Shown one piece after another: positions 103 through 40,673 of a stretch of 64,000 bases of DNA; within the stretch, counting starts at the first letter, position 1; each line of letters begins with the position of its first letter. The notes under the pieces were generated by a model. That model did not search any database. It saw only the letters and a list, made by a program, of their open reading frames with translations, and was not told the origin of the DNA. The DNA comes from an uncultured Candidatus Saccharibacteria bacterium (GTDB lineage: Bacteria; Patescibacteriota; Minisyncoccia; Phycocordibacterales; PALSA-1337): positions 1,512-65,511 of the forward strand of contig CAYPPJ010000005.1 in assembly GCA_964412585.1 (NCBI GenBank), given 5' to 3'. A program made the translations under genes and the position numbers.

Positions 103-741
103 ATGACAACATCACCTATCCCTGTCTCTGACGTGGCAGATCATGCCAAATTGCGCGCCTTGTTGAACCGGCCAAGTTGGACTCTCTTTCCGCCTGCGGC
201 GCAGGCAAAAGAAGCAGGAAATCTCATCTCCCATCAACGCTGCTTGGCAATTCTTCGAAACGTTGAAATATTTACCGTCGGCCATGTCTGTATGAAGACG
301 GAGATGGAACTGCTTAAATACCGTTTCTTCGGACGAAGAGCTCTGGAATATCTCAAACAGTGCGTTGCATCACACAGTCTAAAACTTGGCATGACTTTTG
401 GGCCAGAACTACATGACCAACGCATCGACCACCAGTGCATTTACTGGTATGATACGAACTCCGGCATTAGCCCCCGAGCAAACTTACGTTTCTTTTTTCA
501 GGACCTCAAAAGGACGGATCGTGCGCGTATCATCACGTCGCTCATGGCCGGAGGTGTTTATGTTGCTTACCCCTACAATAGCAGCCCCGGTCACTCACTA
601 AACATTAGTTTCGCTCGGCAATTTCTCCTGTTCACTGAAGCCGACCTCCTCAAGTTTGCCCACGTAAAACCTCGTCACATCGAGTACATCAAGCAGCGGC
701 TGCAAGAACTCGGCGGATACACTTTGTGGAAATACCGGTAA
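103..741 (+). CDS. hypothetical DNA-binding protein with two RNA polymerase alpha-CTD-like helix-hairpin-helix segments
   Basis: Long ORF. The segment ILRNVEIFTVGHVCMKTEMELLKYRFFGRRALEYLKQ resembles the RpoA C-terminal domain HhH pattern (TVGDL..KTEEELLKIRNFGKKSLEEIK). A second similar segment lies near the C-terminus. No other recognisable domain. Confidence 0.45.
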   Translation: MTTSPIPVSDVADHAKLRALLNRPSWTLFPPAAQAKEAGNLISHQRCLAILRNVEIFTVGHVCMKTEMELLKYRFFGRRALEYLKQCVASHSLKLGMTFGPELHDQRIDHQCIYWYDTNSGISPRANLRFFFQDLKRTDRARIITSLMAGGVYVAYPYNSSPGHSLNISFARQFLLFTEADLLKFAHVKPRHIEYIKQRLQELGGYTLWKYR

Positions 742-1924: not shown

Positions 1925-4105
1925 TTATTTTTCTTTCTTCCTTTCCCCCTTCTCCTTCTTAACCTCCTTCTCCGCCCTCTTTTCAATCTCAATCAACTCA
2001 TCTCGTATCAACGCCGCGGTCTCAAAATCCAGCGCCTTGACGGCCTCTTCCATGGCGGCCTGTTTCTGCTTCATCAAGAGCTTAGGATTGGTGCGCGCCA
2101 GTTCTTCATCGATCTTGACGAGCTCATTGACGGCCTTCTCATGCTCGGTACGCAGCTGATCGGTAATATCATGAATAGCTTTCTTGATGGTGACCGGCGT
2201 GATGCCATGCTCCTTATTGTAGGCAATCTGCAGCGCGCGGCGGCGATCGGTCTCCTTGATGGCGCGATCCATGGAACCGGTGAGGTTGTCGGCATAGAGG
2301 ATAACACGGCCGGCGGCATTGCGGGCAGCACGACCGATGGTCTGAATGAGCGCCGTTTCGGAGCGCAAAAAACCTTCCTTGTCGGCATCGAGAATACCGA
2401 TGAGCGAAACTTCAGGCAGGTCCAGTCCCTCGCGCAGGAGGTTGACGCCCACCACGATATCGTACTTCCCTTTGCGGAAATCCGTCAGAATATTGATGCG
2501 CTCGATGGTCTTGATGTCGCTATGCAGATACACCGCCTTGATCTGCTTTTCCTTGAGGAATTCAGAGAGGTCTTCAGCCATTTTCTTGGTTAATGTGGTA
2601 GCGATCACACGGTCGCCACTTTCTATAGTCTTTTGAGCTTCTTCAATGAAGTCAAAGATTTGACCCATGTAGGGAGTTTTTGAACGTTCCTTCGAAGGGG
2701 CCTTCGGACTGAGCGAAGGCGAAGGAGAACGAGCCGCGTCCTCAGCAGAGGACGACGGCGTACCCTGAGGAGGAATGTGCGAAAACTCCCGAATGGGTCT
2801 GATTTCTACAATTGGGTCAATCAATCCAGTAGGTCGAATAACTTGCTCCACCACCTGCTTACTCGTCTCTGCTTCATATTTGCCCGGCGTGGCCGAAGTA
2901 TAGATCATCGGACCCACACGCTCGAGGAATTCATTGAACTTCAGCGGTCGGTTATCTTTTGCCGAAGGCAGTCGGAAGCCATGCTCCACCAACGTATCCT
3001 TGCGCGAAAAGTCACCCGCATACATACCATTGAGTTGCGGGATGGTCACGTGCGATTCATCGATGATGGTCAAAAAATCTGCCACCATTTTGCCCGTCTT
3101 GGGATCTTTCTTTTTTGGGAAGTACGAGAGCAGCGTATCAGGCGGCTCGCCAGGCATCATGCCGGAGAAATGTCGTGAGTAGTTCTCAATGCCGTTGGTA
3201 TAGCCAATCTCCTTGATCATCGAGAGATCGTATTTGACGCGACGCTTGAGGCGCTCGGCTTCGAGCATTTTGCCCGCCTTCTCGAGCTCTTTGAGTCGAC
3301 CGACCAGCTCGGCCTGAATGGTTTTGTAGGCACGCTCACTCTGTTCATCAGTCGAGATAAAGTGCTTGGCCGGAAAAACAAAGATGGTGTCATGTGTGGC
3401 ACGGACCGAGCGCGAGACCGGATCCAGTTCGGTGATGGTAGAAATGCTCGAACCCTCGTATTCGAGTCGATAAATCGTTTTTTCATTGACCGGCATAATC
3501 TCGATAGTATTCCCCACCGCACGGAAGTTGCCGGAGTTCACATCAGCAGTGGTGCGTTCGAAATGAATGTCGATAAGCTTGCGAATAAGTTCAGCGCGCG
3601 ACAGTTCCATGCCCACTTTCAATTTCAAATTCACCTTTTCATATTCCTCCGGACTTCCCAAACCATAGATGCAGGAAACTGAAGCCACAATGATGACATC
3701 TTTACGAGTAAGGAGCGCCTGGGTCGATGCGTGGCGAAGCCTTTCAATTTCTTCGTTGATCATTGCCTCTTTCTCAATGTAGGTATCGCTTGAGGGAATG
3801 TAGGCCTCGGGCTGGTAGTAGTCATAGTACGAAACAAAGTAGTGCACCGCATTGTTGGGGAAAAATTCACGGTACTCCTGGGCAAGCTGGGCTGCGAGCG
3901 TTTTGTTGTGAGCAATGACGAGAGTTGGTTTGCCATATTGAGCAATTACATTGGCGGCCGTAAACGTCTTTCCTGAACCGGTCACACCGAGCAGAGTCTG
4001 ACTATCGAGCCCCTTCTTGAGCCCATCCACCAACGACAAAATAGCCTTTGGCTGGTCGCCGGCTGGTGCGAAGGGAGTGGCTATTTTGAAGGGTGAACTG
4101 CTCAT
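1925..4105 (-). CDS. uvrB: excinuclease ABC subunit B
   Basis: Walker A motif GVTGSGKTFT, helicase motifs, and a C-terminal UVR domain (ALIRDELIEIEKRAE). 726 aa. Contains a ~45 aa Ser/Pro-rich insertion and a Lys/Glu-rich tail. Confidence 0.95.
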   Translation of the reverse strand: MSSSPFKIATPFAPAGDQPKAILSLVDGLKKGLDSQTLLGVTGSGKTFTAANVIAQYGKPTLVIAHNKTLAAQLAQEYREFFPNNAVHYFVSYYDYYQPEAYIPSSDTYIEKEAMINEEIERLRHASTQALLTRKDVIIVASVSCIYGLGSPEEYEKVNLKLKVGMELSRAELIRKLIDIHFERTTADVNSGNFRAVGNTIEIMPVNEKTIYRLEYEGSSISTITELDPVSRSVRATHDTIFVFPAKHFISTDEQSERAYKTIQAELVGRLKELEKAGKMLEAERLKRRVKYDLSMIKEIGYTNGIENYSRHFSGMMPGEPPDTLLSYFPKKKDPKTGKMVADFLTIIDESHVTIPQLNGMYAGDFSRKDTLVEHGFRLPSAKDNRPLKFNEFLERVGPMIYTSATPGKYEAETSKQVVEQVIRPTGLIDPIVEIRPIREFSHIPPQGTPSSSAEDAARSPSPSLSPKAPSKERSKTPYMGQIFDFIEEAQKTIESGDRVIATTLTKKMAEDLSEFLKEKQIKAVYLHSDIKTIERINILTDFRKGKYDIVVGVNLLREGLDLPEVSLIGILDADKEGFLRSETALIQTIGRAARNAAGRVILYADNLTGSMDRAIKETDRRRALQIAYNKEHGITPVTIKKAIHDITDQLRTEHEKAVNELVKIDEELARTNPKLLMKQKQAAMEEAVKALDFETAALIRDELIEIEKRAEKEVKKEKGERKKEK

Positions 4106-4147
4106 AAATACCTAGTAAGAATCTCATATTTTGGGAAGGAGGGATAC

Positions 4148-4177
4148 TTGACTTTTATGTATAATATGTGTTATAAT
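4148..4177 (+). promoter_or_regulatory. sigma70-like promoter (TTGACT, 17-18 bp spacer, TATAAT) firing away from uvrB
   Basis: TTGACT at 4148-4153 and TTATAAT at 4171-4177. Directly upstream of a 21-bp inverted repeat and the ORF at 4380. Confidence 0.45.
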
Positions 4178-4214
4178 ACTAACAGTACAGAATCATTGAA
4201 ATAACAGTGGCGCT

Positions 4215-4280
4215 CACGAGATAGCTTCTTGCATGTCTTCCCTTTAACTATTATGAAGGCATGCAGCAAGCTATCTCGTA
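4215..4280. repeat. 21-bp near-perfect inverted repeat with a 24-nt loop (cacgagatagcttcttgcatg / catgcagcaagctatctcgta)
   Basis: Read directly: arms at 4215-4235 and 4260-4280, with one mismatch pair. No T-run follows, so it is probably not a terminator. Confidence 0.6.
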
Positions 4281-4379
4281 CAGGTAGTAAGTAAGTTGTC
4301 TGAACTTAATAGGGGTCATTGGCTGAAAAGTCATTGATCTCTGGACAACGGTACGTGCTACCGACCATGCCCAAAAAGC

Positions 4380-9345: not shown

Positions 9346-10023
9346 TTAATGTCCCAATTTCTTGAACTCCGTCACCGCATCCACATAGTTGTCTGCCTCA
9401 AAAATAGCAGAGCCGACGACAAGCCTATTTGCACCCGCTTCAAGAAGCGCCGACCCATTCTCCAATGAAACTCCCCCATCTACGGAAATAGGTATCTCTG
9501 GGTAAGCAGCTCGAACCTCTTTTATTTTATCAATGACTTTGGCATCAAAAGGTTGATGTTGGAAGCCAATAGTATCTATACCCATAAGCTGAATGCCTTG
9601 AATCTTATCTTTGTATGGTTCAATAGCCGAAATGGGTGTATCTATATTGAGTGCCAGACTTACTTCGATTCGATCTTTCAACTGATCGACCGCACCCTCA
9701 ATATTTCCACGTGCTTCAACATGAATAATAATACGTGTCGCACCAGCACTGACCCATTCCTCAACAACTTCTTCGGGACGGTTGGCCATAAGGTCAATCT
9801 CAAAGTTGAGCTTCTCCCAGCCAGGCAAACCTTCTTCTTCAGTTACAATCTTATGAAAAGAATCGTCTTCTTTGCGGTACGGCCAGGTGGCACTCGGCAC
9901 GAACTGACCATCACAGACATCGATCTGCACGGTTTTTACGAAATCCTTGATAAGGTCAATTTTTTCCCGGAGCTCAGCAAAATCCTTAGGAAGAATGGCG
10001 GGGATTATTTCAGGGCGTTTCAT
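9346..10023 (-). CDS. rpe: ribulose-phosphate 3-epimerase-like (TIM barrel)
   Basis: The N-terminal IIPAILPKDFAELREKI matches the Rpe IAPSILSADFA pattern. Later segments IHVEA..G and DGGV fit as well. Clustered with tkt and rpiB. Confidence 0.7.
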   Translation of the reverse strand: MKRPEIIPAILPKDFAELREKIDLIKDFVKTVQIDVCDGQFVPSATWPYRKEDDSFHKIVTEEEGLPGWEKLNFEIDLMANRPEEVVEEWVSAGATRIIIHVEARGNIEGAVDQLKDRIEVSLALNIDTPISAIEPYKDKIQGIQLMGIDTIGFQHQPFDAKVIDKIKEVRAAYPEIPISVDGGVSLENGSALLEAGANRLVVGSAIFEADNYVDAVTEFKKLGH

Positions 10024-10057
10024 ACATCGCAGTATAGCAAACTACATCACATTAATA

Positions 10058-10105
10058 AATCTTCAGCGAATCTTTATCAAAACTTCAGCGGGCTTCAACT
10101 TGACA
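10058..10105 (+). promoter_or_regulatory. phased 11-bp repeat array ending in a TTGACA -35 element
   Basis: Repeats AATCTTCAGCG, AATCTTTATCA and AAACTTCAGCG lie at 10058-10090. TTGACA lies at 10100-10105, then a 16-nt spacer and TATAAT at 10122-10127. The same array type occurs at 36355 and 50966. Confidence 0.5.
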
Positions 10106-10133
10106 GTAGAAAAAAGATACTTATAATTATAGG

Positions 10134-10228
10134 CGATGTAGTCTGTTTATCAGACCATCTGGAGCCCGACGAAAGGCGAATCATATCGCCAGATGATCGG
10201 CACAAAAAATCCCTCAAGGGATTTTTTG
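10134..10228 (+). ncRNA. candidate small RNA (~95 nt) with its own promoter and an intrinsic terminator
   Basis: The promoter lies just upstream. Internal hairpins are gtctg-tttat-cagac and catctgg...ccagatg, plus ggcgat...atcgcc. Terminator ATCCC-tcaa-GGGAT followed by TTTTTTG at 10209-10228. No ORF. Convergent with rpiB. Confidence 0.5.
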
Positions 10229-10249
10229 TTTATACTAAAATAACCTAAC

Positions 10250-10721: not shown

Positions 10722-11054
10722 TTATTGAATGCTCACAAAATACGCAATAAAGAAGAAAATCATGACCACAAAAATCGTCACAGTGGTATATCCAAGCAAC
10801 TTGAGCGCCTCTTTCTTCTTGCCATCAAGATACCACAAGATCGGACGTCCGAGAACAAGTCCACCACATACCAGTGCAGAAAAGATGAACAACAGAAGCA
10901 TGGCCATAGGAATGAGCGCATTATCAGGTCCATGCCCAAAGATAGTGCCTGCATTGCTGACAAATAAGGCCACCAAGGCAACATAAAATGCAGTTAGGAG
11001 AGCATTGGCGAGGGCGTATTTGAGAATTGATGGTTTGTTATTCATTGAATTCAA
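10722..11054 (-). CDS. small hypothetical membrane protein (3 TM helices)
   Basis: 110-aa hydrophobic ORF. Confidence 0.45.
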   Translation of the reverse strand: MNSMNNKPSILKYALANALLTAFYVALVALFVSNAGTIFGHGPDNALIPMAMLLLFIFSALVCGGLVLGRPILWYLDGKKKEALKLLGYTTVTIFVVMIFFFIAYFVSIQ

Positions 11055-11232
11055 TTATAGCATTTTACGAAATAGTAGTCTGATTTGACATTATGAAATA
11101 GTATCTGTATAGTTTATTAAATTCTTTTCCTCTAGCTTCCCCTGCACCACTGTTGGCGCTGGGGATCTTTGGAGGAAAGGATAGTTCCTTTACAAGATTC
11201 TGACTGTTCTATCCAATCTGACTGAATGTAGT

Positions 11233-12645
11233 GTGAAAACGAAACAACCAAAATATACTGGCCGGATCATATCGATTCCGGGAAACGACGGGTACGGATT
11301 CATCGGCATCGACACGATCGGATTGAGTGAAAGCGGTGACAGTGACAACCTCGATACGAAACACGACATCTTCCTGCACAAGGATGATTGCGGGTCTCCG
11401 CTCAAGGTCGGCATGACGGTCTCCTTCGATGTCGTTCCGGACAAAACACGGGGCGAAAAACATTTCCGCGCCGTTGGTGCGGTAGAATGCCTCGAAGCCG
11501 AACTGCTCTCCCCCAACGAAGCACCTCTACCGGGTTTCATGGCTCTTGCACCATTTGGGCAACAACCTTTGGGACAAGGCTTGCCAATTCTGCCCGCCAC
11601 GCCTGCACAACGCTCCATGAAGGCCGTCCCCGAAGAGGCCGTCCAGTGCGTTGTCCGCAATGAGCCACTTCATACAATTGCTCGGGATTCGTCGGTACCG
11701 GAACAACGCGATCTTCTGATTCAGGCATTCCTCGAATTTCTCTTCCCTACCATGAAACAATTCGGCGCCTCGTTCAAACTGGACGGCAGCGACGACGTGG
11801 AGGTTGATGCCCAGATCAAAGCTGCGCAAGAAGACCACAAAGCACTCGGCATGGAGGAACAGGATACCGTTATGACCAAGGAAGTTGAACGGTTTCGTTC
11901 ATTTCGCGGCGCGTTGAAGTTCATGGTCGAAGAAAACCTCGTCCGGCGTGACACCATCATCCCAATCGAGTACCTGCCTGATTTCTTCATGGCTGTACCA
12001 GTGTGGTTCCATTACACGAACGGGGCGCTCGCGGAACTAATCGAAAATGACTGGGCCAACCATGACCCTCACATCAATTCCGCAACCAAGTACTTCTGCA
12101 ACCTGTTCCCAAACCAGCGTTGGATGGATACGTTCCTCATGTTCAATCGCCGCTTGCGCACTCTGAGGATGTACAAGGGCGACATTATTCCGCCCCACGT
12201 ACTCAGAAGGATACGGGAGGCGGCAAAACTGTTCGACCATGTCGTAATCATGACACCGTATCTCGACGTCGCCGGAAAGGACTGGCAGGATGCGGCATGG
12301 ATTCGGTCAATTGATCCGTATGTGGTTGGATTCAAACAGGGCGTCCCGTACTTCTTTGTATTGGCACGATTCAGTGACTCGGGAACGTTTCCATTGTTCG
12401 AAAAACTCCTTGCGGATACGACGGAGTTTCTCCGTGTGCACAAAAACGACTTGCGAGGTTTCGACCGAGCCAGCTTCCCGTATTGGATGAATCCGATCGA
12501 AGAAAAACCATACGAAGGCAAACTTGGCGTTCACTTGATTGAACACGTTAATATGCTGCTCACCGCCTTCGGGCAGGGCAAGCTCTTCGACTGGCTGCGT
12601 GGCACCGTCTCGGATGACGAGGTGCTCAAGACAAAGAAGAAATAG
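11233..12645 (+). CDS. cold-shock-domain fusion protein: N-terminal CSD-like OB fold plus a ~370 aa uncharacterised C-terminal domain
   Basis: The N-terminus GRIISIPGNDGYGFIG ... DIFLHKDD ... KVGMTVSFDVVPD ... RAVGAV aligns with the CspA pattern GIVKWFNADKGFGFI..DVFVHFSAI..GQKVSF. The rest has no recognisable motif. Monocistronic, with a terminator at 12664-12700. Confidence 0.6.
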   Translation: MKTKQPKYTGRIISIPGNDGYGFIGIDTIGLSESGDSDNLDTKHDIFLHKDDCGSPLKVGMTVSFDVVPDKTRGEKHFRAVGAVECLEAELLSPNEAPLPGFMALAPFGQQPLGQGLPILPATPAQRSMKAVPEEAVQCVVRNEPLHTIARDSSVPEQRDLLIQAFLEFLFPTMKQFGASFKLDGSDDVEVDAQIKAAQEDHKALGMEEQDTVMTKEVERFRSFRGALKFMVEENLVRRDTIIPIEYLPDFFMAVPVWFHYTNGALAELIENDWANHDPHINSATKYFCNLFPNQRWMDTFLMFNRRLRTLRMYKGDIIPPHVLRRIREAAKLFDHVVIMTPYLDVAGKDWQDAAWIRSIDPYVVGFKQGVPYFFVLARFSDSGTFPLFEKLLADTTEFLRVHKNDLRGFDRASFPYWMNPIEEKPYEGKLGVHLIEHVNMLLTAFGQGKLFDWLRGTVSDDEVLKTKKK

Positions 12646-12717: not shown

Positions 12718-14019
12718 CTATATCTTCCTCAACTCCTCCCTCACCACCTTTCTATCATCCCACGCACTTCGTACACCACCGATAACTATCGACTGTTCCG
12801 CACCTTTTCCAGTAATGAGAACAACATCACCGGCCTGCGCCAATGAAAGCGCCTTGCGAATCCCCTCTCTGCGATCTTCAATGACGAAGAGGTCAGTGCC
12901 GCGCTTTTTGCCGAACTTTTCAGCAACCGTGGCAATATCTTCAAGGATTTCTTGTGGATCGTCTTCGTACGGATCCACATTCGTCACGATGACATAATCC
13001 GCCAGACGTGCCGACAATTCTCCCATAATTGGACGCTTTGACTTGTCACGACCTCCACCTTCAGCACCAAGGAGAATGATCGTGCGTGCACCAGGCTTTC
13101 GCATCTGCTTGGCAGTATTCAAGACGTTCGTCATGCTCTGTTTTTCGTGAGCATAATCAACAATCACGGTATACGGCTGACCTTCATTGATCTGCTCCAT
13201 GCGTCCTGGAATAACCTCGAGTCCCATTAACCCATTTCGGATGATCGAATCATTCATACCAGAGATATGGCCGATAATGATGGCGGGCAATGCATTGTAG
13301 ACATTAAATCTTCCAAGAATGCGTATGCTAAATGGCGTACCATCGACGGCAAACGTGACTCCGGTGTCGCTCTCCTTGATACTGGTTGCACGTATCTCAG
13401 CGGATGAATCAATACCAAAGGTAATCTTGCGATCAGCTTTGTATGATAAATAAAATTCACTATGCAAATCATCGGTATTGGCGATAATAACTTTCTCCAC
13501 ACGCTTTCCTGCAATAATTTTGTGTGCCGAACCAAGTGCGGCAAACATAGTACCCTTGGTTTTTTTGTAGTGTTCAAAACTTCCTCCATGAGAAGGCAAA
13601 TGTTCCGGCGTAAGGTTGGTAAAGACCGCGATGTCATAGTACACACCGACGTGACGATACTGAAGAATTCCTTCTGACGTTGTCTCAACAATACAATGCG
13701 TACAACCTTCACTAACCATGCGCGCGAGCAATGCCTGGATAGTAAAACGCCCTGGCATGGTCATGTGATATTTATTCAAAACCTCTTCAGTACCAATACG
13801 AATATTCGCCGTACTAATGATGCCCGTCTTGTGCCCTCCCGCCATCAGTGTTGACCAGATGAAATTGGTAGCCGACGTCTTTCCTTTGGTGCCCGTAATA
13901 CCGATAACCACCATCTTTTTCGATGGTGATCCATAGCGGAGAGCAGCAGCTCGTGCGAGACAGTAATGATACCAGCCGAGCACAAACTTCGGCGTCAGTG
14001 AATGAATGAATTTCTTCAT
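12718..14019 (-). CDS. Mur ligase family protein (MurE-like UDP-MurNAc-tripeptide synthetase, short N-terminus)
   Basis: GITGTKGKTS P-loop, DYAHEKQ (compare the DYAHTPDAL motif of MurE), and Mur ligase middle and C-terminal domains. 433 aa, without a typical MurE N-terminal domain. Confidence 0.8.
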   Translation of the reverse strand: MKKFIHSLTPKFVLGWYHYCLARAAALRYGSPSKKMVVIGITGTKGKTSATNFIWSTLMAGGHKTGIISTANIRIGTEEVLNKYHMTMPGRFTIQALLARMVSEGCTHCIVETTSEGILQYRHVGVYYDIAVFTNLTPEHLPSHGGSFEHYKKTKGTMFAALGSAHKIIAGKRVEKVIIANTDDLHSEFYLSYKADRKITFGIDSSAEIRATSIKESDTGVTFAVDGTPFSIRILGRFNVYNALPAIIIGHISGMNDSIIRNGLMGLEVIPGRMEQINEGQPYTVIVDYAHEKQSMTNVLNTAKQMRKPGARTIILLGAEGGGRDKSKRPIMGELSARLADYVIVTNVDPYEDDPQEILEDIATVAEKFGKKRGTDLFVIEDRREGIRKALSLAQAGDVVLITGKGAEQSIVIGGVRSAWDDRKVVREELRKI

Positions 14020-15059
14020 ATGAAGCGTTTTATCAGTTTACGCAGATTGTAGAGATAATACCAGAGGGGCTGCGCGACTACGTCATAGAAGTCAGAGTGA
14101 ATAAGTTCGTGTCCCCCAAAGCGTGTTTTGAAACGTGTCAGTCCTTCCCAGCCTTTGTAGAGGTTGCCCAGTGATACACCACCAAAATTATATTCAGTAC
14201 AACCGATCTTCTTGGCATGCTTAATAGCTTCCCACTGTGCAATGTGAGTGATTCCCAGATTGCGATGCTCATCACTCGATCCCGCAAAGACATAGTTCGC
14301 AACTTTTCCATGATAGATGATGAGATCAACAGTGAGAATCGCCCCTTCGAACTTTGCGAGGACTAAATATGCATATTCAGGTTTCAGTGTATTAAAAATA
14401 TTTTCGTAATATTCTTTTTCATGAAGACTGAATCCGTTTCTATCCGACGTCTCCTTCATCAGTTTATAAAAATCAGGAAAATAGCGCGCAAAGTCAGATG
14501 TAATGATTTCCGTCGTCACTCCTTTCCTTCCTGCTAGACGAATAGAATAGCGATTTTTCTCGTGAATTTCCTTGTAGATATCTTCCTCAGTTTTATGCAA
14601 ATTCAAAACCCATTCTGCACGAGGTTGGAAATAGGCTGAATGATACGTGTACGATGGCGCACGCTTGAAATGCTTGTCGAGCTGAGCAATCTTGTTCTGA
14701 TCTCGTGCAGCTGGTGTAAAGTCGAGACGAATAAAAACTGCATTTCGCTCACGTGCCACTGCCATCATTTTTTCTTTGACGGCCTCGAGTATTTCATTTG
14801 AAAATTCGCTGACCACGGGACCATAGGGTGCGTACAGATACTTTCTATCTTTGATGAGGGGATATTCAGTGAGTTGAATATATGCCACTGCCTTTCCATT
14901 TTTTTCGCCTACAAATCGAAAAGTAGTGCGGCCCAAGTTCTCTTGCCACTCGCCGTACAATCGTGCCTGCGTAAAAGGTGCATCCGCGGAGATGGTGAGC
15001 GGGTCAAAGGGTTCTGATTGAAGGATGGGGCGGAATTCGATAGACGACATTACCTGCAT
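14016..15059 (-). CDS. FemAB-family peptidoglycan aminoacyltransferase (FemX/MurM-like)
   Basis: 347 aa with a YLYAPYGPV motif and a GNAT-tandem length typical of FemAB (PF02388). A 4-nt overlap with the upstream Mur ligase gene points to an operon. Confidence 0.7.
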   Translation of the reverse strand: MQVMSSIEFRPILQSEPFDPLTISADAPFTQARLYGEWQENLGRTTFRFVGEKNGKAVAYIQLTEYPLIKDRKYLYAPYGPVVSEFSNEILEAVKEKMMAVARERNAVFIRLDFTPAARDQNKIAQLDKHFKRAPSYTYHSAYFQPRAEWVLNLHKTEEDIYKEIHEKNRYSIRLAGRKGVTTEIITSDFARYFPDFYKLMKETSDRNGFSLHEKEYYENIFNTLKPEYAYLVLAKFEGAILTVDLIIYHGKVANYVFAGSSDEHRNLGITHIAQWEAIKHAKKIGCTEYNFGGVSLGNLYKGWEGLTRFKTRFGGHELIHSDFYDVVAQPLWYYLYNLRKLIKRFI

Positions 15060-17496: not shown

Positions 17497-18582
17497 TTAC
17501 TTACCACGCATCTGTGCGTATCTTTTCCCCAACTTTTTGATGAGCCCCGGTCCTTCAAAAATCATGCCTGTTATGACCTGAACAAGATCCGCTCCTGCGT
17601 CGAACTTTTCTTTCATTGTCTCAGGTGACATCACGCCACCAACACCCATAATCGTAAACCGTTTACCAAATGCCTCTCGTGTTTTGTATATCAAATCTGT
17701 CGAAAGATGAGTGCAGGGCTTGCCTGAAAGACCTCCTTTATAGATTACCGGGGCTTCCGATCGAACATCGAGCGAATCATAGTCTTTATTGAGGTTACCG
17801 ATTACAACACCTTGTAGTCCGTGAGCCTCGATAATCTTGAGAAGCGCTTCAAATTGAGTCCACGGAATATTGATTGGCATTTTTATATACACCGGCTTCG
17901 TACATGGAATTGCCTTGAGTGCGGTAAGTAGTCGAGTCAACAATTCAGGTGTTGCAAACGCTTCTCCTCCAAAAGAATTGGGACATGAAATATTGATGGT
18001 GTAATAATCACCAACGTTTTCTTCATTGAGGCGCCTAAATGAATACACGTAGTCAGCAATGCCTGCTTCTATCTGCACAGATTGTTCGTCATTGGTACGC
18101 GCGATCGAAATACCGATAACAAAAGGCGGTCGACTTCTTATATCTGAAACTCCTTCTTTGTTTTGAACAGCGCGTGCTTTTTTGAGACGCTCGATGATCG
18201 CATCCACACCTTCATTTTTTAATCCTTTATTAACTAAAAGGCTTTGGGACTTGGGCAATCGAGTCAATCGCGGTGCAGGATTGCCTGTACACGGACGCGC
18301 AGTAACCGAACCAATCTCCTCCCCACCGAGTCCAATATGCTCGAGTGTACGAGTAAGTTGACCATTGTAGTCAAAACCAGCCGATAAAAGAAACGGTGTT
18401 TGGTACGATACACCATCGACAGTTTTTGAAATATCGGGACCATGGTATCCGTAGACAATACAGAGAATCTTTCGGGTCAAAGCTGTCGAACCTATCCAAC
18501 TACCCCATGCAATAAAAAAGTCATGCACGGCCTCCGGGTCGAACATGAACAGGATTGGCTTGAGAATATGCTTGTAGAGCAT
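17497..18582 (-). CDS. pyrD: dihydroorotate dehydrogenase (quinone), class 2
   Basis: N-terminal MLYKHILKPILFMFDPEAVH, the TARPCTGNPAPRLTRL motif, and an FMN-binding TIM barrel. Confidence 0.85.
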   Translation of the reverse strand: MLYKHILKPILFMFDPEAVHDFFIAWGSWIGSTALTRKILCIVYGYHGPDISKTVDGVSYQTPFLLSAGFDYNGQLTRTLEHIGLGGEEIGSVTARPCTGNPAPRLTRLPKSQSLLVNKGLKNEGVDAIIERLKKARAVQNKEGVSDIRSRPPFVIGISIARTNDEQSVQIEAGIADYVYSFRRLNEENVGDYYTINISCPNSFGGEAFATPELLTRLLTALKAIPCTKPVYIKMPINIPWTQFEALLKIIEAHGLQGVVIGNLNKDYDSLDVRSEAPVIYKGGLSGKPCTHLSTDLIYKTREAFGKRFTIMGVGGVMSPETMKEKFDAGADLVQVITGMIFEGPGLIKKLGKRYAQMRGK

Positions 18583-18643
18583 AGTGATAATTCACTATAC
18601 CATAGATTATGCTATAATTTCCTCACTAACCTCTCATATATTC

Positions 18644-20167
18644 ATGAATAGCATCAAGAAACACCCCCTCATTTGGGGCTTTATCGGTATCATTGTCATC
18701 ATTATCGTCATTATTATTGCTTTTGGTAGCAAGGGACCAGAGGAACAGACTATGATTGTGCACCGAGCAGACTATACCAACACTGTCGCCGTCTCAGGAA
18801 AAGTAGTGGCAGCACAGAACTCGGATCTTGGATTTGATCAAAGTGGACGAGTCGCAACCATATCCGCGGCTGTTGGCGACAAGGTCAAAGTTGGTACAGT
18901 CATCGCCTCTATCGACAATGCTGCCATTCGCGCCGATCTTGCCCAAAAGCAGGCAACACTTGAAAAAGAACAGGCCAAACTCGCGGCCCTCCGCCGAGGT
19001 ACGAGGACCGAAGAACTTGCCGTATCCGAACAAAAATATCTTGACGCATCATCTGCTCTTATCATTGCTTTGCGAAATGCATATACACAAACAGAAGGAG
19101 CTATCCTCACAAAAGCAGATACTTTGTTCAATAATGGCAACAGCGTCAATCCGACACTCAACATCAATGCGCAGTCTGATACCCAAAAGCGCGCAATCGA
19201 ACTTGAGAGAATCGCACTTGGTGACACGCTTGCTACATGGAGAAGTGCACTCGCCACGTTGACGGCAGGAGCAGACGCTAAAACACTCGCGAGCGTTCGT
19301 ACAAAAGGGACACAAGTAATGGCCGCCACAAAATTATTTATTGACCACCTTGCGACTATTACCAACAATCTCAACATCAATAACGCGGGAGTATCGCAGG
19401 CAACGATCGACACATATCGCTCGACAATAAATGCTGCAGCGCAACAGATTGGTACTACCGCTTCGACAGAGCAAGAAAGCTACAGCGTATGGACATCTTC
19501 TTCCAAGTCGCTCACTCTTGACCAATCAGGATCAGCTACAGAAGACATTACCGCACAAGCGGCACAGGTCAGATCTGCTGAAGCGGATGTCGCCAATGCC
19601 CAAGCCCAGCTTCGTAAAACACTTATTGTCGCGCCTTTTGATGGAAGTATCACAAAGATGGATCTCAAGATAGGAGAGATCGCTTCACCAAACACTTCAA
19701 AAGTCTCTATGATGAGTACCAACACATTTGAAATAGACAGTTATATTCCTGAAGTCTATATCGCCCGTGTCACCGTTGGTAACACTGCCACCCTCACACT
19801 CGACGCTTTTGGCAGCGAGCGCACATTCAATGCTTCTGTCATCTCTATTGAACCAGCCGAGACAGTGAAAGATGGCGTTTCGACATACAAAACAAAACTT
19901 CGTCTCGTCGATGGTGACCCGCAGATTCGTTCAGGTATGACAGCTAATATTCAGATTATAACCGAAATCAAGGAACAGGTTATCGCCGTACCTCAAGGTG
20001 TCATCATATCTGCCGATGGAACAAAGTATGTCGAGGTCAAACGTGGCGCTGTCAATGAACGCGTACCAGTCACACTTGGCGGCACAGCAGGCTTTGGTCA
20101 CATCGAGGTCATTTCTGGCTTGCAAGAAGGAGATATCGTCGTCCTCCCGCCAGTCACCACCAATTAA
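18644..20167 (+). CDS. efflux periplasmic adaptor (HlyD/MacA-like membrane fusion protein) with a long coiled coil
   Basis: N-terminal TM helix, a biotinyl/lipoyl-like beta segment, a long Ala/Gln-rich helical hairpin, and a C-terminal beta-barrel. The ORF opens at 18584. The start is probably MNSIKK at 18644. Confidence 0.7.
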   Translation: MNSIKKHPLIWGFIGIIVIIIVIIIAFGSKGPEEQTMIVHRADYTNTVAVSGKVVAAQNSDLGFDQSGRVATISAAVGDKVKVGTVIASIDNAAIRADLAQKQATLEKEQAKLAALRRGTRTEELAVSEQKYLDASSALIIALRNAYTQTEGAILTKADTLFNNGNSVNPTLNINAQSDTQKRAIELERIALGDTLATWRSALATLTAGADAKTLASVRTKGTQVMAATKLFIDHLATITNNLNINNAGVSQATIDTYRSTINAAAQQIGTTASTEQESYSVWTSSSKSLTLDQSGSATEDITAQAAQVRSAEADVANAQAQLRKTLIVAPFDGSITKMDLKIGEIASPNTSKVSMMSTNTFEIDSYIPEVYIARVTVGNTATLTLDAFGSERTFNASVISIEPAETVKDGVSTYKTKLRLVDGDPQIRSGMTANIQIITEIKEQVIAVPQGVIISADGTKYVEVKRGAVNERVPVTLGGTAGFGHIEVISGLQEGDIVVLPPVTTN

Positions 20168-20173
20168 CACCGC

Positions 20174-21430
20174 ATGTCTTCACTGCTCAATGTCCGTATT
20201 GGCGCATTCCTGGCACTTCGCCAGATCAAACGCTCAAGCAAGTGGACCACGACATTGATTATTTTCGTGATGATTTTGACGTTCCTGAACCTCGTCGTCG
20301 TTTCAGGTGTTCTGGTGGGACTCATCCAAGGATCGGTTGATGCTCAGCGCAGACAATATACCAGTGATGTCATCATTTCGACATTAAGTACCAAGACATA
20401 TATTGAGCACAGCGCCGATATCATTTCCCTGCTGCGTTCCTTGCCAGAAGTTGATGCAATCAGTCCACGCTATGTGAGCGGTGTGCAACTTGAGGCAAAC
20501 TACAAGACTCGTATCAACCAAAACGACAAAGCAAATACGGCAGGTGGCGAACTCGTCGGTATCGACCCACGAAGTGAAGACGAGATTACCAATCTCTCGA
20601 AGTTCGTTATCGAAGGATCATACCTCTTGCCGACTGATTATGACCAAATCTTACTTGGTTCCTTCTTGGTCAAAAAATATGTCCCAGTCAACAACCCTGG
20701 GTTTAGCGCCTTGGAAAATGTTGAACCTGGATCAAAAATCCGTATCAAAGTTAATGGCATCGTCCGCGAGGTTACCGTTAAAGGTATCCTCAAAAGCAAG
20801 GTCAACGAGACTGGTTTGCGCTCATTTATGGTCGACAGCCAACTCCGTAGCTTGATTGGTCGCAATGATTTTAATGTGGGAGAAATTGCGGTACGCCTCA
20901 AAGCGGGGGCTGATCCTATACTGGTGCGCGACACACTGATTCGCAGCGGGGTCAACACAGTCGCCAAGGTGCAAACGTATGTTGATGCACAGCCAAAGTT
21001 TCTCAAAGATATCAAAGATACCTTTGCACTCCTAGGTAATATGATTAGCTCTATTGGTCTCGTCGTAGCCTCAATTACCATCTTTATTGTGATCTTTATC
21101 AATGCTATTACTCGCCGCAAATTCATTGGTATTCTGAAAGGCATCGGCATCAATGGTAAAGCCATTGAGATTTCATACGTCATTCAGTCTATTTTCTATG
21201 CAGCCTGTGGTTCTATTATTGGGCTTGTATTTATCTTCGGATTCCTTCAGCCACTCATAGCCGCACACCCGATCGACTTCCCCTTCAGTGACGGTATTCT
21301 CGTGGCTCCATTCGGCGAGACATTGCTCCGCGTTGGATTACTCATCTTTGCCACCATCATTGCGGGATATATCCCCGCACGCATGATTGTTCGCAAGAAT
21401 ACACTTGATTCGATATTAGGGCGAAAATAA
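20174..21430 (+). CDS. ABC transporter permease, FtsX/MacB type with a periplasmic domain
   Basis: 418 aa. TM1, then a ~250 aa extracytoplasmic domain, then 3 C-terminal TM helices (FtsX fold). Confidence 0.8.
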   Translation: MSSLLNVRIGAFLALRQIKRSSKWTTTLIIFVMILTFLNLVVVSGVLVGLIQGSVDAQRRQYTSDVIISTLSTKTYIEHSADIISLLRSLPEVDAISPRYVSGVQLEANYKTRINQNDKANTAGGELVGIDPRSEDEITNLSKFVIEGSYLLPTDYDQILLGSFLVKKYVPVNNPGFSALENVEPGSKIRIKVNGIVREVTVKGILKSKVNETGLRSFMVDSQLRSLIGRNDFNVGEIAVRLKAGADPILVRDTLIRSGVNTVAKVQTYVDAQPKFLKDIKDTFALLGNMISSIGLVVASITIFIVIFINAITRRKFIGILKGIGINGKAIEISYVIQSIFYAACGSIIGLVFIFGFLQPLIAAHPIDFPFSDGILVAPFGETLLRVGLLIFATIIAGYIPARMIVRKNTLDSILGRK

Positions 21431-37905: not shown

Positions 37906-38640
37906 ATGGATACCATACAGCGAACACTCATCGAAGCGGGCTTTACTGACAAAGAAGCCGTCGTATACCTTACCCTCTTGAGTTGTGGAAGCGCCTCGGC
38001 ATATACTGTCGCTGAAAAATCAGGACTCAAACCTTCCACCAGTTATCTAACTCTTTACAACCTCACTCGCAAAGGCCTTGTATCTACTATTCCACGCGCC
38101 AAGAAAAAACTCTTTATTGCAAAAGATCCCCGTGAAGTCATCTCCTATCTTGAAGAACGAACTGCTCGTGCTAAGCGTGCTTTGCCGGAGATGCTTTCAC
38201 TTATTCCTGCTCATGTACCAAAACTCAAGATTCAGTACTTTCAAGGCATGAAGGGTGTTCAGGAGGCTCTCAACTATGGCATCACGCACAAAATACCTAC
38301 GACAGAAATCGTCGGCTTCTATGCCAGTGGCAGTCGTGTGGAACGTCAATATATGGATATGTCAGTCCAATTTATGCGCAGTCTCAAAAAGCGCGGTGTC
38401 CGTGTGCGTGGTATTACGCCAGATGATGCAACCATCCGCGAGATCAAGAAGCTCAACGATACGCTCGGTCATGAGCTACGCACGATTCCCCTTTCAGAAT
38501 ATTCAGCGCAGGCTTCGATAGAGGCTGAAGACAAGCTCGTGCGCATCATTCTCAACAATGACCAGCGTGCACTCATCATCGAAGATGCTGAGCTTGCCAG
38601 CATGGTCAAACAGATTTTTGAGATGGTGTGGAAGAAATAA
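37906..38640 (+). CDS. TrmB-family transcriptional regulator (copy 1)
   Basis: N-terminal wHTH EAGFTDKEAVVYLTLLSCGSASAYTVAEKSGLKPSTSYLTLYNLTRKGLV, typical of TrmB. C-terminal effector-like domain. Confidence 0.7.
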   Translation: MDTIQRTLIEAGFTDKEAVVYLTLLSCGSASAYTVAEKSGLKPSTSYLTLYNLTRKGLVSTIPRAKKKLFIAKDPREVISYLEERTARAKRALPEMLSLIPAHVPKLKIQYFQGMKGVQEALNYGITHKIPTTEIVGFYASGSRVERQYMDMSVQFMRSLKKRGVRVRGITPDDATIREIKKLNDTLGHELRTIPLSEYSAQASIEAEDKLVRIILNNDQRALIIEDAELASMVKQIFEMVWKK

Positions 38641-39837: not shown

Positions 39838-39917
39838 TTGACAGCAGTATATAAAATGGTAATATGTATGCAAACTCTCCTGTTTGGGAGAGTAAATATC
39901 ATAAAATTATTACGTTG

Positions 39918-40673
39918 ATGAACACCTCCATCCTAAAAAATTACGGCCTCAATAGGAATGACATCGCCGTCTATGACGCACTCCTTCGACTTGGACGATC
40001 AAAAACTGGACCTATTATCCACGGGACCGATATTGTCAGTTCCCGCGTGTATGAATCACTCCGCATCCTCGTTTCGCGCGGACTTGTCTCTTACCAGGTC
40101 AAAAACAATATCAAATACTATCAAGCCGAGTCCCCCGACCAGCTCATCGATGAAGCCGGCAAGAATATTGGTGAACTAAAAACTCTGGCAAAAGATATCG
40201 ACTCCTTTTCTATTCCCCTTCCCTCACGTAACGACGCCAATATATTCGAAGGTAGACATGGATTTAAGATGGCTTTCACACAGCACATAGAACACATAAA
40301 AAGGGGTGAGAAAGTTTCTATCATCGGCTTTTCGCACCGCGCATATCTAAAAGGCGCCGGTAGTCGTGAACTTCGATCATTTTTTACCAACAGCGACACT
40401 CTCATGATGCCCAAGAAAGCTCATGCTCGACTCCTTACTGAACGTGAACTTATGCCCATACTCACCAAGGAACGCATTGATTCGTCCATTTACAACATTA
40501 AATATTTGCCATCTGGATATTTTGGACCCTGCGCGGTCAATATCTCTGAAACAGAAGTCCTGCTTTCTGTATGGGGCGAGAGTCCAATTGTATTTAGTAT
40601 CAAAAACCCAACTGTCGTAAAGACATTTCAGAAAAACTTTGACTTTTTGTGGGGACTGGCGAAGAAGAAATAA
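39918..40673 (+). CDS. TrmB-family transcriptional regulator (copy 2)
   Basis: The wHTH NYGLNRNDIAVYDALLRLGRSKTGPI begins at the internal Met 39918. The ORF opens at 39864. Confidence 0.65.
   Translation: MNTSILKNYGLNRNDIAVYDALLRLGRSKTGPIIHGTDIVSSRVYESLRILVSRGLVSYQVKNNIKYYQAESPDQLIDEAGKNIGELKTLAKDIDSFSIPLPSRNDANIFEGRHGFKMAFTQHIEHIKRGEKVSIIGFSHRAYLKGAGSRELRSFFTNSDTLMMPKKAHARLLTERELMPILTKERIDSSIYNIKYLPSGYFGPCAVNISETEVLLSVWGESPIVFSIKNPTVVKTFQKNFDFLWGLAKKK

Follow-up and report, generated by a model that had tools for sequence, protein, structure and literature searches.

A phased 11-bp repeat array upstream of tRNA-like small RNA loci in Patescibacteria: a candidate promoter without a −35 element and its putative antagonistic RNA pairs

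Introduction

What does an array of 11-bp direct repeats do that recurs three times in 64,000 nucleotides of DNA from an uncultured Candidatus Saccharibacteria bacterium (Patescibacteriota; contig CAYPPJ010000005.1), each time in front of a locus that encodes no protein? The array was first noticed in an inspection of the letters alone (hereafter, the sequence-only reading), where it was placed upstream of a TTGACA/TTGATA −35-like element. Here, the whole 64-kb stretch (the window) is considered together with contigs of related uncultured bacteria (L004, L008, L009, L011, L023, L026, L028, and L038). On balance, we lean towards viewing the array as the upstream half of a specialized promoter that lacks a −35 element and drives an antagonistic pair of small RNAs, namely, a tRNA-like RNA (RNA-A) and an RNA complementary to it (RNA-B).

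The Repeat Array

As the sequence-only reading had it, the array stretches begin at 10058, 36355, and 50966 (window sites 1, 2, and 3, respectively). A 21-nt core, AATCTYCAGCGAATCTTTAWC, occurs in the window at these three positions only, with none expected by chance, and a search for the 22-mer AATCTTCAGCGAATCTTTATCA with up to three mismatches returns exactly three occurrences, all on the + strand, versus zero in shuffled sequence. The motif is not scattered at random or genic positions, as nhmmer profiles of the element give no fourth copy in the 64 kb, genic or intergenic. The short 11-mer consensus alone is marginal in the window (4 matches vs. 1.08 expected).

The 11-bp phasing is strong. 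Compared with themselves at a shift of 11, the arrays have an identity of 0.55–0.68; the remaining shifts between 5 and 16 give 0.11–0.36. Every window array reaches P ≤ 0.0004, and the same peak is seen in six of the seven related arrays, the seventh, that of L026, being weak (0.44, P = 0.046). By the criterion used for PhoB/OmpR sites, i.e., direct repeats with a period of 10–11 bp, nine of ten arrays give P < 0.001. Tandem Repeats Finder reports site 1 only (period 11, score 38) and misses sites 2 and 3 because the units are only 55–70% alike. When 30 units are aligned, their consensus is WWTCTTYAKCR, with an invariant A at position 8 and a C at position 4 in 23 units; position 10 is likewise C in 23/30. 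The conserved C positions argue for recognition by a protein, since curvature alone would not need them. The L008 array has six units instead of four, which adds 22 bp, exactly two units, and preserves the 11-bp register; the diverged orthologues L023, L038, and, weakly, L026 also hold the register while the sequence drifts. Upstream of the element lies a conserved flank motif, tTACAyCAyA, common to sites 1–3, L004, and L009. The comparisons support the placement of the units on one helical face, directly upstream of predicted promoters. Two other assignments were considered and rejected: a DnaA-box or iteron reading of TTATCA, which has no match to TTATNCACA, and TrmB-type palindromes, the units being direct and not inverted repeats.

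Scans of public genome and metagenome contigs found the exact 21-mer in four related contigs (L004, L008, L009, and L011), where it always points to a downstream gene or RNA. The exact-pattern scan gave 4 matches in public genome contigs, only L004 being genuine, and 9 in metagenome contigs, with L008, L009, and L011 genuine; the remainder are a single coding sequence of a gut phage and coincidental matches inside coding sequences, and in viral contigs the same scan gave nothing beyond this phage sequence. The array element stands upstream of a MazF-like open reading frame (ORF) in L004 and of a ComM/YifB-like ORF in L009, while in L008 and L011 it precedes RNA loci with the plan of sites 2 and 3. 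Hence, the earlier statement that every array is followed by a non-coding locus is right for all three sites of the window and too narrow elsewhere, where the element also precedes protein genes.

The Promoter

To what kind of promoter does the array belong? At sites 2 and 3, the supposed TTGATA −35-like element is better read as part of TG-n-TAnnnT, an extended −10. A promoter scan of the two sites found no promoter using TTGATA as a −35 and no acceptable −10 16–18 bp past it, and TGnTAnnnT stands at the end of the array in eight of the ten elements. Counted from the end of the TAnnnT hexamer, base seven is exactly the A of the ATG in the protein genes of L004 and L009, whose ATG lies 15 nt after (T/C)TGATA; the −35 reading of TTGATA is rejected because the start site would then fall inside these ORFs. 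For RNA-A of L023 and L026, the predicted start coincides with position −1/+1 of the acceptor stem. We infer that TGnTAnnnT acts as an extended −10 and that transcription begins 7 nt past it.

A Shine–Dalgarno-like motif precedes none of the 43 ATG-start genes of the window, and TAnnnT peaks 6–7 nt upstream of ATG (10 of the 43 genes), which implies widespread leaderless mRNAs. An example is rpe, with TGCTATACT 7 nt ahead of its ATG at 10023.

If transcription starts 7 nt past the hexamer, as the spacing of the leaderless ATGs suggests, the repeats would span about −64 to −21 and replace the −35 element. Given this predicted start, the units would have their invariant A at −57, −46, −35, −24, and −13, and the degenerate fifth unit (−13) would merge into the extended −10. 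The array had earlier been likened to OmpR/PhoB-type or to UP/Fis-type activating sites. The former likeness stands as a matter of geometry, in that four 11-bp direct repeats between about −64 and −21 without a −35 are of the OmpR/PhoB/PhoP type. The latter is not supported: the tRNA-Gln gene of the window (55061–55131) has an ordinary TTGATT-17-TATTCT promoter without an array, so that the array is not a general feature of stable RNAs, and the units, which extend to −21, are conserved at C/G positions.

The tRNA-Like RNA-A

What lies downstream of these promoters is, in most cassettes, a compact RNA with the outlines of a tRNA. Each of the seven RNA-As with a full T-arm (site 3, L008, L011, L038, L023, L026, and L028) folds to the same cloverleaf by minimum free energy. 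Over its 68 nt, the RNA comprises a 7-bp acceptor stem and a discriminator base, with CCA not encoded. The D mini-arm comprises 3–4 bp and a tetraloop that usually contains GG (TGGC, TGGT, AGGT, or TCGG); the anticodon-like arm of 20–26 nt has a stem of approximately 5–11 bp and a noncanonical loop, 8–10 nt by our parse, as opposed to the 5-bp stem and the 7-nt loop with U33 of a tRNA; the T-arm is canonical, and its loop is TTCGAnn (TGCAAAT in L038). All hallmarks of a tRNA-like fold are found, i.e., a four-way junction, a 7-bp acceptor, a T-arm with a TTCRAnn loop, GG in the D-loop, and a discriminator.

The fold is backed by covariation. In an alignment of six RNA-As, 90.9% of the pair cells are paired, with compensatory double changes in 20 of the 22 pairs; none of 500 shuffles reaches this level, and sliding the partners by 1–3 columns lowers pairing to 39–57%. 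A covariance model built for the family, R1, gives its members 34–81 bits compared with 16–30 bits for true tRNAs, and recovers two non-seed members, that of site 2 (41 bits) and that of L038 (34 bits). Judged by such sequence comparisons, RNA-A is well supported as a real structured family. Standard tools pass it by: ARAGORN calls no gene in the window other than tRNA-Gln and is silent at every cassette, and Rfam at gathering thresholds reports no cassette RNA, the best sub-threshold scores of RNA-A being 20–22 bits for tmRNA, 26 bits for mascRNA, and 24 bits for tRNA-Sec.

The acceptor stems fall into two types. RNA-As with A73 and an intact acceptor (site 3, L008, L011, and L038) carry G1-C72, G2-C71, and G3:U70. 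The combination of G3:U70 and A73 is the identity set of tRNA-Ala and tmRNA and is read by AlaRS. The U73-type RNA-As of the orthologues L023, L026, and L028 have G1-C72, C2-G71, and C3-G70, without G3:U70/A73. From these features, RNA-A would probably be processed and CCA-tailed like a tRNA.

Two more conventional identities were rejected. A genuine, if odd, tRNA-Asp/Asn is suggested by GTT or GTC in the loops of L023, L026, and L028, but the stem and loop sizes are wrong, and both detectors fail. A two-piece or permuted tmRNA does not fit either, as RNA-A has both acceptor strands, RNA-B lacks a conserved tag frame and stop, and there are several copies per genome. A smaller element was also observed upstream of uvrB in contig L042 of a relative (10900–11260, − strand), where a promoter with TTGACT and a TG-extended −10 is followed by a 51-nt mini tRNA-like element (R1 25.7 bits, 4-bp acceptor stem, T-loop TTCGACC), then by a non-coding stretch of approximately 300 nt and a strong terminator; ARAGORN calls neither the mini element nor a tmRNA there.

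RNA-B and Its Complementarity to RNA-A

Every RNA-B is complementary to its own RNA-A, either at the anticodon-like arm or at the mature 3′ end. The complement of the arm is perfect over 17 of 17 nt at site 2 and 16 of 16 in L011, and comprises 10 perfect nucleotides (14 of 15 overall) at site 3. The complement of the 3′ end, which includes the 3′ strand of the acceptor, the discriminator, and CCA, extends over 10 nt in L008, 12 in L028, 9 in L023, and 7 in both L026 and L038. In these five cassettes, it is anchored at A76 and shrinks to ≤4 nt if the genomic trailer is put in place of CCA.

The pairing is specific to each cassette: the longest non-cognate perfect complements are ≤8–10 nt, cognate complements compared with shuffles give P ≤ 0.0135, and the cognate duplex is the most stable in six of the seven columns of an all-against-all matrix. 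Moreover, the discriminator and the base facing it in RNA-B vary together (UGGA with U73, UGGU with A73), and in L028 a compensatory change at acceptor position 68 is matched in its RNA-B.

RNA-B has a promoter of its own, with the pattern TTGAC(A/T/G), a 16–17-nt spacer, and TAnnAT; the exception is L028, where the spacer is approximately 19 nt. An interpretation of RNA-B as a small mRNA was rejected, as a 22-codon ORF is present at site 2 only and is not conserved. A short-word BLAST search for small RNA targets elsewhere in the window turned up perfect complements of at most 12 bases (14 if one mismatch is allowed), none with E below 0.2.

The Three Loci of the Window

The full cassette has the order array promoter, RNA-A, near-consensus sigma-70 promoter, RNA-B, and bidirectional terminator, as seen in the syntenic rpiB–rpe spacer of the relatives L023, L026, L028, and L038; sites 2 and 3, L008, and L011 follow the same plan. 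All window features given below lie on the + strand.

At site 2, behind the conserved upstream flank (36338–36354), the array (36355–36398) consists of the four units AATCTCCAGCG, AATCTTTAACG, TTTCTCCAGCA, and TTTCTTCAGTT, with the invariant A at −57, −46, −35, and −24. The extended −10, TG-A-TACAGT (36404–36412), puts the predicted start near 36419, and the same motif and spacing recur in L004, L009, L023, L008, and L038. The transcript would begin with a 5′ leader hairpin (36419–36440; from the fold, with equivalents in L008 and L038), followed by a degenerate tRNA-like RNA-A (36445–36511; R1 E = 5e-9) with a mini D-arm, GAG-CGGT-CTC, and a long anticodon-like arm. Within the latter, the segment GCCCATCCTCATCAGTT (36464–36480) is the one complementary to RNA-B, at 36578–36594. 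The sigma-70 promoter of RNA-B (TTGACT, 17-nt spacer, TATACT; 36543–36571) leads into RNA-B (36578–36650), whose 5′ end, 36578–36594, is thus the complement of RNA-A, and whose terminator is at 36617–36647. The region upstream of the element (36307–36339) resembles that between RNA-A and RNA-B (36521–36566).

At site 3, the distal units 1–3 (50966–50998) are separated from unit 4 by an insertion of approximately 25 bp (50999–51023) that contains AATGTGCTCA. The proximal unit 4, again TTTCTTCAGTT, and the extended −10, TG-A-TAGAGT (51040–51048), together occupy 51024–51048, with a predicted start near 51055. RNA-A (51077–51144), found by a descriptor scan and supported by the minimum free energy fold and by R1 (74.9 bits), is a 68-nt cloverleaf with the acceptor GGGGGTG/CACCTCC (G3:U70), A73, the D mini-arm CCA-AGGT-TGG, the T-loop TTCGATT, and no encoded CCA; its best Rfam match is tmRNA, with 20 bits compared with a gathering score of 47. 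Then follow the sigma-70 promoter (TTGACA, 16-nt spacer, TATACT; 51177–51204) and RNA-B (51211–51284), in which 51211–51224 is complementary to the RNA-A arm at 51098–51111 and 51250–51282 is the terminator. The 10-mer AATGTGCTCA is found both in the array insert (51007–51016) and in the spacer of the RNA-B promoter (51183–51192). The segments shared within sites 2 and 3 suggest that modules of the cassettes have recombined or been duplicated.

Site 1, in the rpiB–rpe spacer, is a reduced cassette. The conserved upstream flank ACTACATCACATTAATA (10041–10057), which carries the motif tTACAyCAyA, precedes three 11-bp units, AATCTTCAGCG, AATCTTTATCA, and AAACTTCAGCG (10058–10090). Next comes GGCTTCAAC (10091–10099), which alignment to the syntenic L023 and L038 cassettes identifies as a remnant of the 3′ end of a deleted RNA-A, and then the sigma-70 promoter of RNA-B (TTGACA, 16-nt spacer, TATAAT; 10100–10127), conserved in L023, L026, L028, and L038. 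Aligned with L023, site 1 is collinear except for approximately 100 missing bases, i.e., unit 4, the −10, and RNA-A, and GGCTTCAAC, the 3′ edge of RNA-A, is fused to the RNA-B promoter. The TTGACA that had been assigned to the array at this site is indeed a true −35, but it belongs to RNA-B's own promoter and abuts the array because of this deletion.

RNA-B of site 1 (10133–10232) is an orphan. It has a fold z-score of −4.0 and block conservation in four relatives and consists of a 5′ hairpin, the block CATCTGGAGCCC (with TGGAGCCCG at 10160–10168), an internal hairpin, CCAGAT, and a bidirectional terminator (10202–10229). In RNA-Bs of this type, CATCTGGAGCCC and CCAGAT are invariant, the hairpin between them is variable, and the RNA is kept where other intergenic DNA has diverged. 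The upstream flank of the array, CAAACTACATC (10038–10048), and the 5′ end of RNA-B, GATGTAGTCTG (10135–10145), are 91% complementary to each other, which may be due to chance.

Cassette Turnover and Genomic Setting

The genes uvrB, rpe, rpiB, dnaX, serS, and dprA in the window are bacterial chromosomal genes. The closest homologues of rpe and dnaX belong to metagenome-assembled genomes of Patescibacteria, or the candidate phyla radiation (CPR), with the source names Paceibacteria or Parcubacteria, and contigs identical to the window are held in JGI metagenomes 33000453xx.

The cassettes vary among close relatives. In L020, with 92% identity in rpe, the whole cassette is missing at the rpiB–rpe locus, and in L038, with 88% identity, a different RNA-A/RNA-B pair occupies the same place; an empty site in the one and another pair in the other suggest that cassettes turn over quickly. 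No orthologue of the site 3 cassette is present near dnaX in three relatives (L035–L037), where the downstream region is not conserved. The three sites are not copies of one element with identical flanks, which was the alternative that the sequence-only reading had to fear: flanks and downstream RNAs differ, and only a promoter module of approximately 75 bp is held in common. A search for features of a mobile element or of a miniature inverted-repeat transposable element found no terminal inverted repeats or target-site duplications around the cassettes. As a separate observation, L020/L022 contain two pairs that resemble diversity-generating retroelements (bAvd and reverse transcriptase, 2976–4359 and 18318–20199), and these elements and a phage integrase are located near the cassette-less rpiB–rpe locus.

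The RNA-B terminators at 10202–10229, 36617–36647, and 51250–51282 are symmetric (A-tract, stem, T-tract), and their convergent neighbours are rpiB, a binding-protein gene, and an ORF of unknown function, respectively. Such symmetric terminators facing convergent genes probably stop transcription from both directions.

The cassettes of sites 2 and 3 lie inside an amino-acid-uptake island. This island (23287–50889) is unusually large for CPR and encodes 13 paralogous Peripla_BP_6 (Liv-type) substrate-binding proteins, Liv permeases, ATPases, and TrmB-like regulators (37906–38640, 39864–40673, and 46707–47498). Elsewhere in the window, at approximately 12718–15059 (5650–7991 in L014), a gene for a FemAB-family transferase adjoins that for a Mur ligase. 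FemAB-family transferases use aminoacyl-tRNA. In principle, cell-wall synthesis could draw on a non-decoding tRNA mimic of alanine identity as a dedicated donor, which we mention as an idea only.

Mechanism and Alternative Explanations

How might such a module work? A sequence-specific protein would bind the units cooperatively, head to tail, and control the recruitment of RNA polymerase; a response-regulator-type activator seems more likely than a repressor. RNA-B would be made from its own, presumably constitutive, sigma-70 promoter and RNA-A only conditionally, and since no terminator stands behind RNA-A, transcription from the array promoter would read into RNA-B. RNA-B may then capture the 3′ end of RNA-A or unzip its long arm, and an induced tRNA mimic would be buffered by a constitutive anti-RNA, much like in an RNA–RNA toxin–antitoxin or sponge pair. 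Several traits resemble those of toxin–antitoxin or sponge systems: the cassettes are distributed patchily, a genome holds more than one pair, each specific to itself, RNA-B of site 1 is an orphan, and the array promoter also stands before a MazF-family gene. We propose, tentatively and as a possibility rather than a probability, that the cassettes are RNA-only modules of Patescibacteria not described before, each with a CCA-tailed 68-nt mimic that often has the alanine identity pair G3:U70, a cognate anti-tRNA RNA, and a lineage-specific phased-repeat promoter, serving either as a toxin–antitoxin or defence switch or as a T-box-like charging sensor. The main alternative role for the pair would be that of a trans-acting, T-box-like charging sensor linked to the amino-acid-uptake island.

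A number of points weigh against the picture of an activated array promoter driving an antagonistic pair. The sample of cassettes is small (8 loci from 5 or 6 genomes). The check for a cognate winged-helix regulator, which the sequence-only reading had proposed, came out negative for the window, as none of its scanned ORFs encodes a Response_reg or a Trans_reg_C domain; the DNA-binding candidates of the window are the three TrmB-like regulators and one protein with a domain like that of the alpha C-terminal domain (alphaCTD) of RNA polymerase, and the relatives encode Response_reg proteins elsewhere in their genomes. At site 3, the insertion of approximately 25 bp is not a multiple of 11, and the distal units are therefore 3 bp out of phase; L028 has no recognizable array. 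The T-arm and acceptor stem of RNA-A at site 2 are weak. There is no CCA complement in RNA-B of site 2, site 3, and L011, and since L023, L026, and L028 are orthologous, the CCA complement is found in only three independent lineages. Part of the similarity of RNA-B to the complement of RNA-A could be the relic of an inverted duplication of RNA-A in an ancestor and not a product of selection. Finally, an extended −10 can work without an activator or a −35, so that the array could be a repressor site or merely architectural.

The architectural possibility, in which the array is an intrinsically curved or UP-like element acting through DNA shape or the alphaCTD with no dedicated regulator, appears unlikely but is the strongest of the competing explanations. 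T/A-rich tracts recur every 11 bp (e.g., GGATTTTATCT and AAATTTTATCA in L008, L011, and L023), the extended −10 needs no −35, and a 212-aa protein encoded at 103–741 (+), apparently stand-alone, gives a weak match to the alphaCTD of RNA polymerase (PF03118, 25.8 bits). However, C4 and C10 are conserved and A8 is invariant, and alpha-type units such as TTTCTTCAGCG have short T runs only; the array reaches −21, inside the region contacted by the polymerase; tRNA-Gln and other promoters of the window have no array; and a 21-nt identity across genomes exceeds the constraint that curvature requires. Rather unlikely, too, is an operator for a polymerizing repressor that would silence RNA-A, and elsewhere the MazF-like toxin and ComM, until a signal arrives. 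The TG-extended −10 could be constitutively active, the array overlaps the expected place of sigma region 4, and downstream of it lie a toxin-family gene (in L004) and an RNA with a dedicated antagonist, all of which would suit repression; yet coverage from −64 to −21 with the −10 and the start site uncovered is the classic layout of a class II activator, and no repressor candidate was found.

It is improbable that the three sites are young copies of a recombining repetitive cassette whose array is conserved by youth and not by function. This explanation draws on the variable presence among close relatives, i.e., the empty locus of L020 and the different cassette of L038, and on the recombination traces, i.e., the 10-mer that the site 3 insert shares with the RNA-B promoter and the site 2 flank that is like the RNA-A/RNA-B spacer. 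It is at odds with the different flanks and cargo, the lack of terminal repeats or target duplications around the cassettes, the register and unit consensus kept by diverged orthologues, and the unrelated protein genes driven by the same module, leaderless at the exact spacing. The original idea of TTGATA/TTGACA as the −35 and the array as a UP/Fis-type enhancer typical of stable-RNA promoters retains very little probability. It would account for the site 1 array abutting a perfect TTGACA-16-TATAAT and for the tRNA-like RNAs downstream, but the juxtaposition at site 1 arose from a deletion, the spacing at sites 2 and 3 is unfit, and the tRNA-Gln promoter has no array.

Relation to Known Systems

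The closest parallel to the array as an activator-dependent promoter half is the pho box. In pho-box promoters (PhoB of E. coli, PhoP of B. subtilis) and other direct-repeat arrays of the OmpR family, two to four or more 11-bp units at about −60 to −20 replace the −35, and the −10 is kept. The array shares with them the head-to-tail 11-bp units on one helical face and, if transcription starts where predicted, would share the replaced −35 and the retained −10. It differs in that WWTCTTYAKCR is unrelated to CTGTCAT or TT(A/T)ACA, the −10 is TG-extended, and the array serves small RNAs and leaderless mRNAs of a CPR bacterium.

RNA-A has several partial counterparts. It resembles tmRNA (RF00023) in the G1-C72, G2-C71, G3:U70, and A73 of the RNA-As of site 3, L008, L011, and L038, in the TTCGAnn T-loop, and in the lack of an encoded CCA, and the sub-threshold matches of 20–22 bits align only the two ends of RNA-A. 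In contrast to tmRNA, RNA-A is 68 nt long with a D mini-arm, a closed anticodon-like arm, no pseudoknots, and several differing copies per genome; there is no tag frame with a stop in RNA-A and none conserved in RNA-B, and the RNA-As of L023, L026, and L028 have C3-G70 and U73. The compact cloverleaf with a reduced D-arm is reminiscent of mascRNA/MEN-beta (RF01684), which matches RNA-A of L011 with 26 bits, below the threshold. Bacterial Y RNAs (YrlA) are also known to mimic tRNA (PMC4201824), and irregular tRNA genes (allo-tRNAs) are reported to occur near toxin–antitoxin systems and to be toxic when expressed (PMC5389517). Nevertheless, mascRNA, the YrlA Y RNA, the B. cereus tRNA-Other, and allo-tRNAs have no sequence homology to RNA-A and are not known to come with an adjacent, dedicated complementary RNA or with an array promoter.

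As regards RNA-B, its complementarity to the anticodon-like region or the 3′ NCCA end, with a base in UGGN that tracks the discriminator, recalls T-boxes and retroviral primer sites. Unlike a T-box (RF00230), RNA-B is a separate short transcript that runs to a terminator, usually convergent with the next gene, and is not a leader, and its pairing with RNA-A over 7–17 nt would unzip stems, as opposed to the 3–4 nt of a T-box; in Rfam, no T-box match to the cassette RNAs was found even at E ≤ 5–10. The difference from retroviral primer sites is the lack of a reverse transcriptase in the cassettes. To our knowledge, T-boxes and retroviral primers aside, no RNA dedicated to pairing with a tRNA mimic, at its CCA end or its anticodon-like arm, has been described. 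Type I and type VIII toxin–antitoxin systems and small RNA sponges are similar in the strong, presumably constitutive promoter of the antagonist, the special promoter of its partner, the specificity of the pairs, the patchiness, and the orphan antagonist at site 1; they differ in that neither RNA of the cassettes has a conserved peptide ORF and the putative toxin would be a tRNA mimic.

Altogether, the RNA-A/RNA-B cassette matches no Rfam family and is not described in the literature searched; in papers on Saccharibacteria/Patescibacteria tmRNA, tRNA-like RNAs, promoter motifs, and leaderless starts, no description of the array or of the cassettes was found.

Significance

We know of almost nothing that has been established about the promoters, regulators, and small RNAs of CPR bacteria. 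The loci considered here offer a concrete promoter architecture for this group, which would combine an extended −10 with leaderless starts and with phased upstream repeats as the mark of a small regulon. They also provide a new, well-supported family of tRNA-like RNAs that escapes standard tRNA searches and Rfam. If the cassettes are true RNA-only toxin–antitoxin modules or charging sensors, they would be a new mechanism of regulation, and one used by bacteria whose genomes are minimal.

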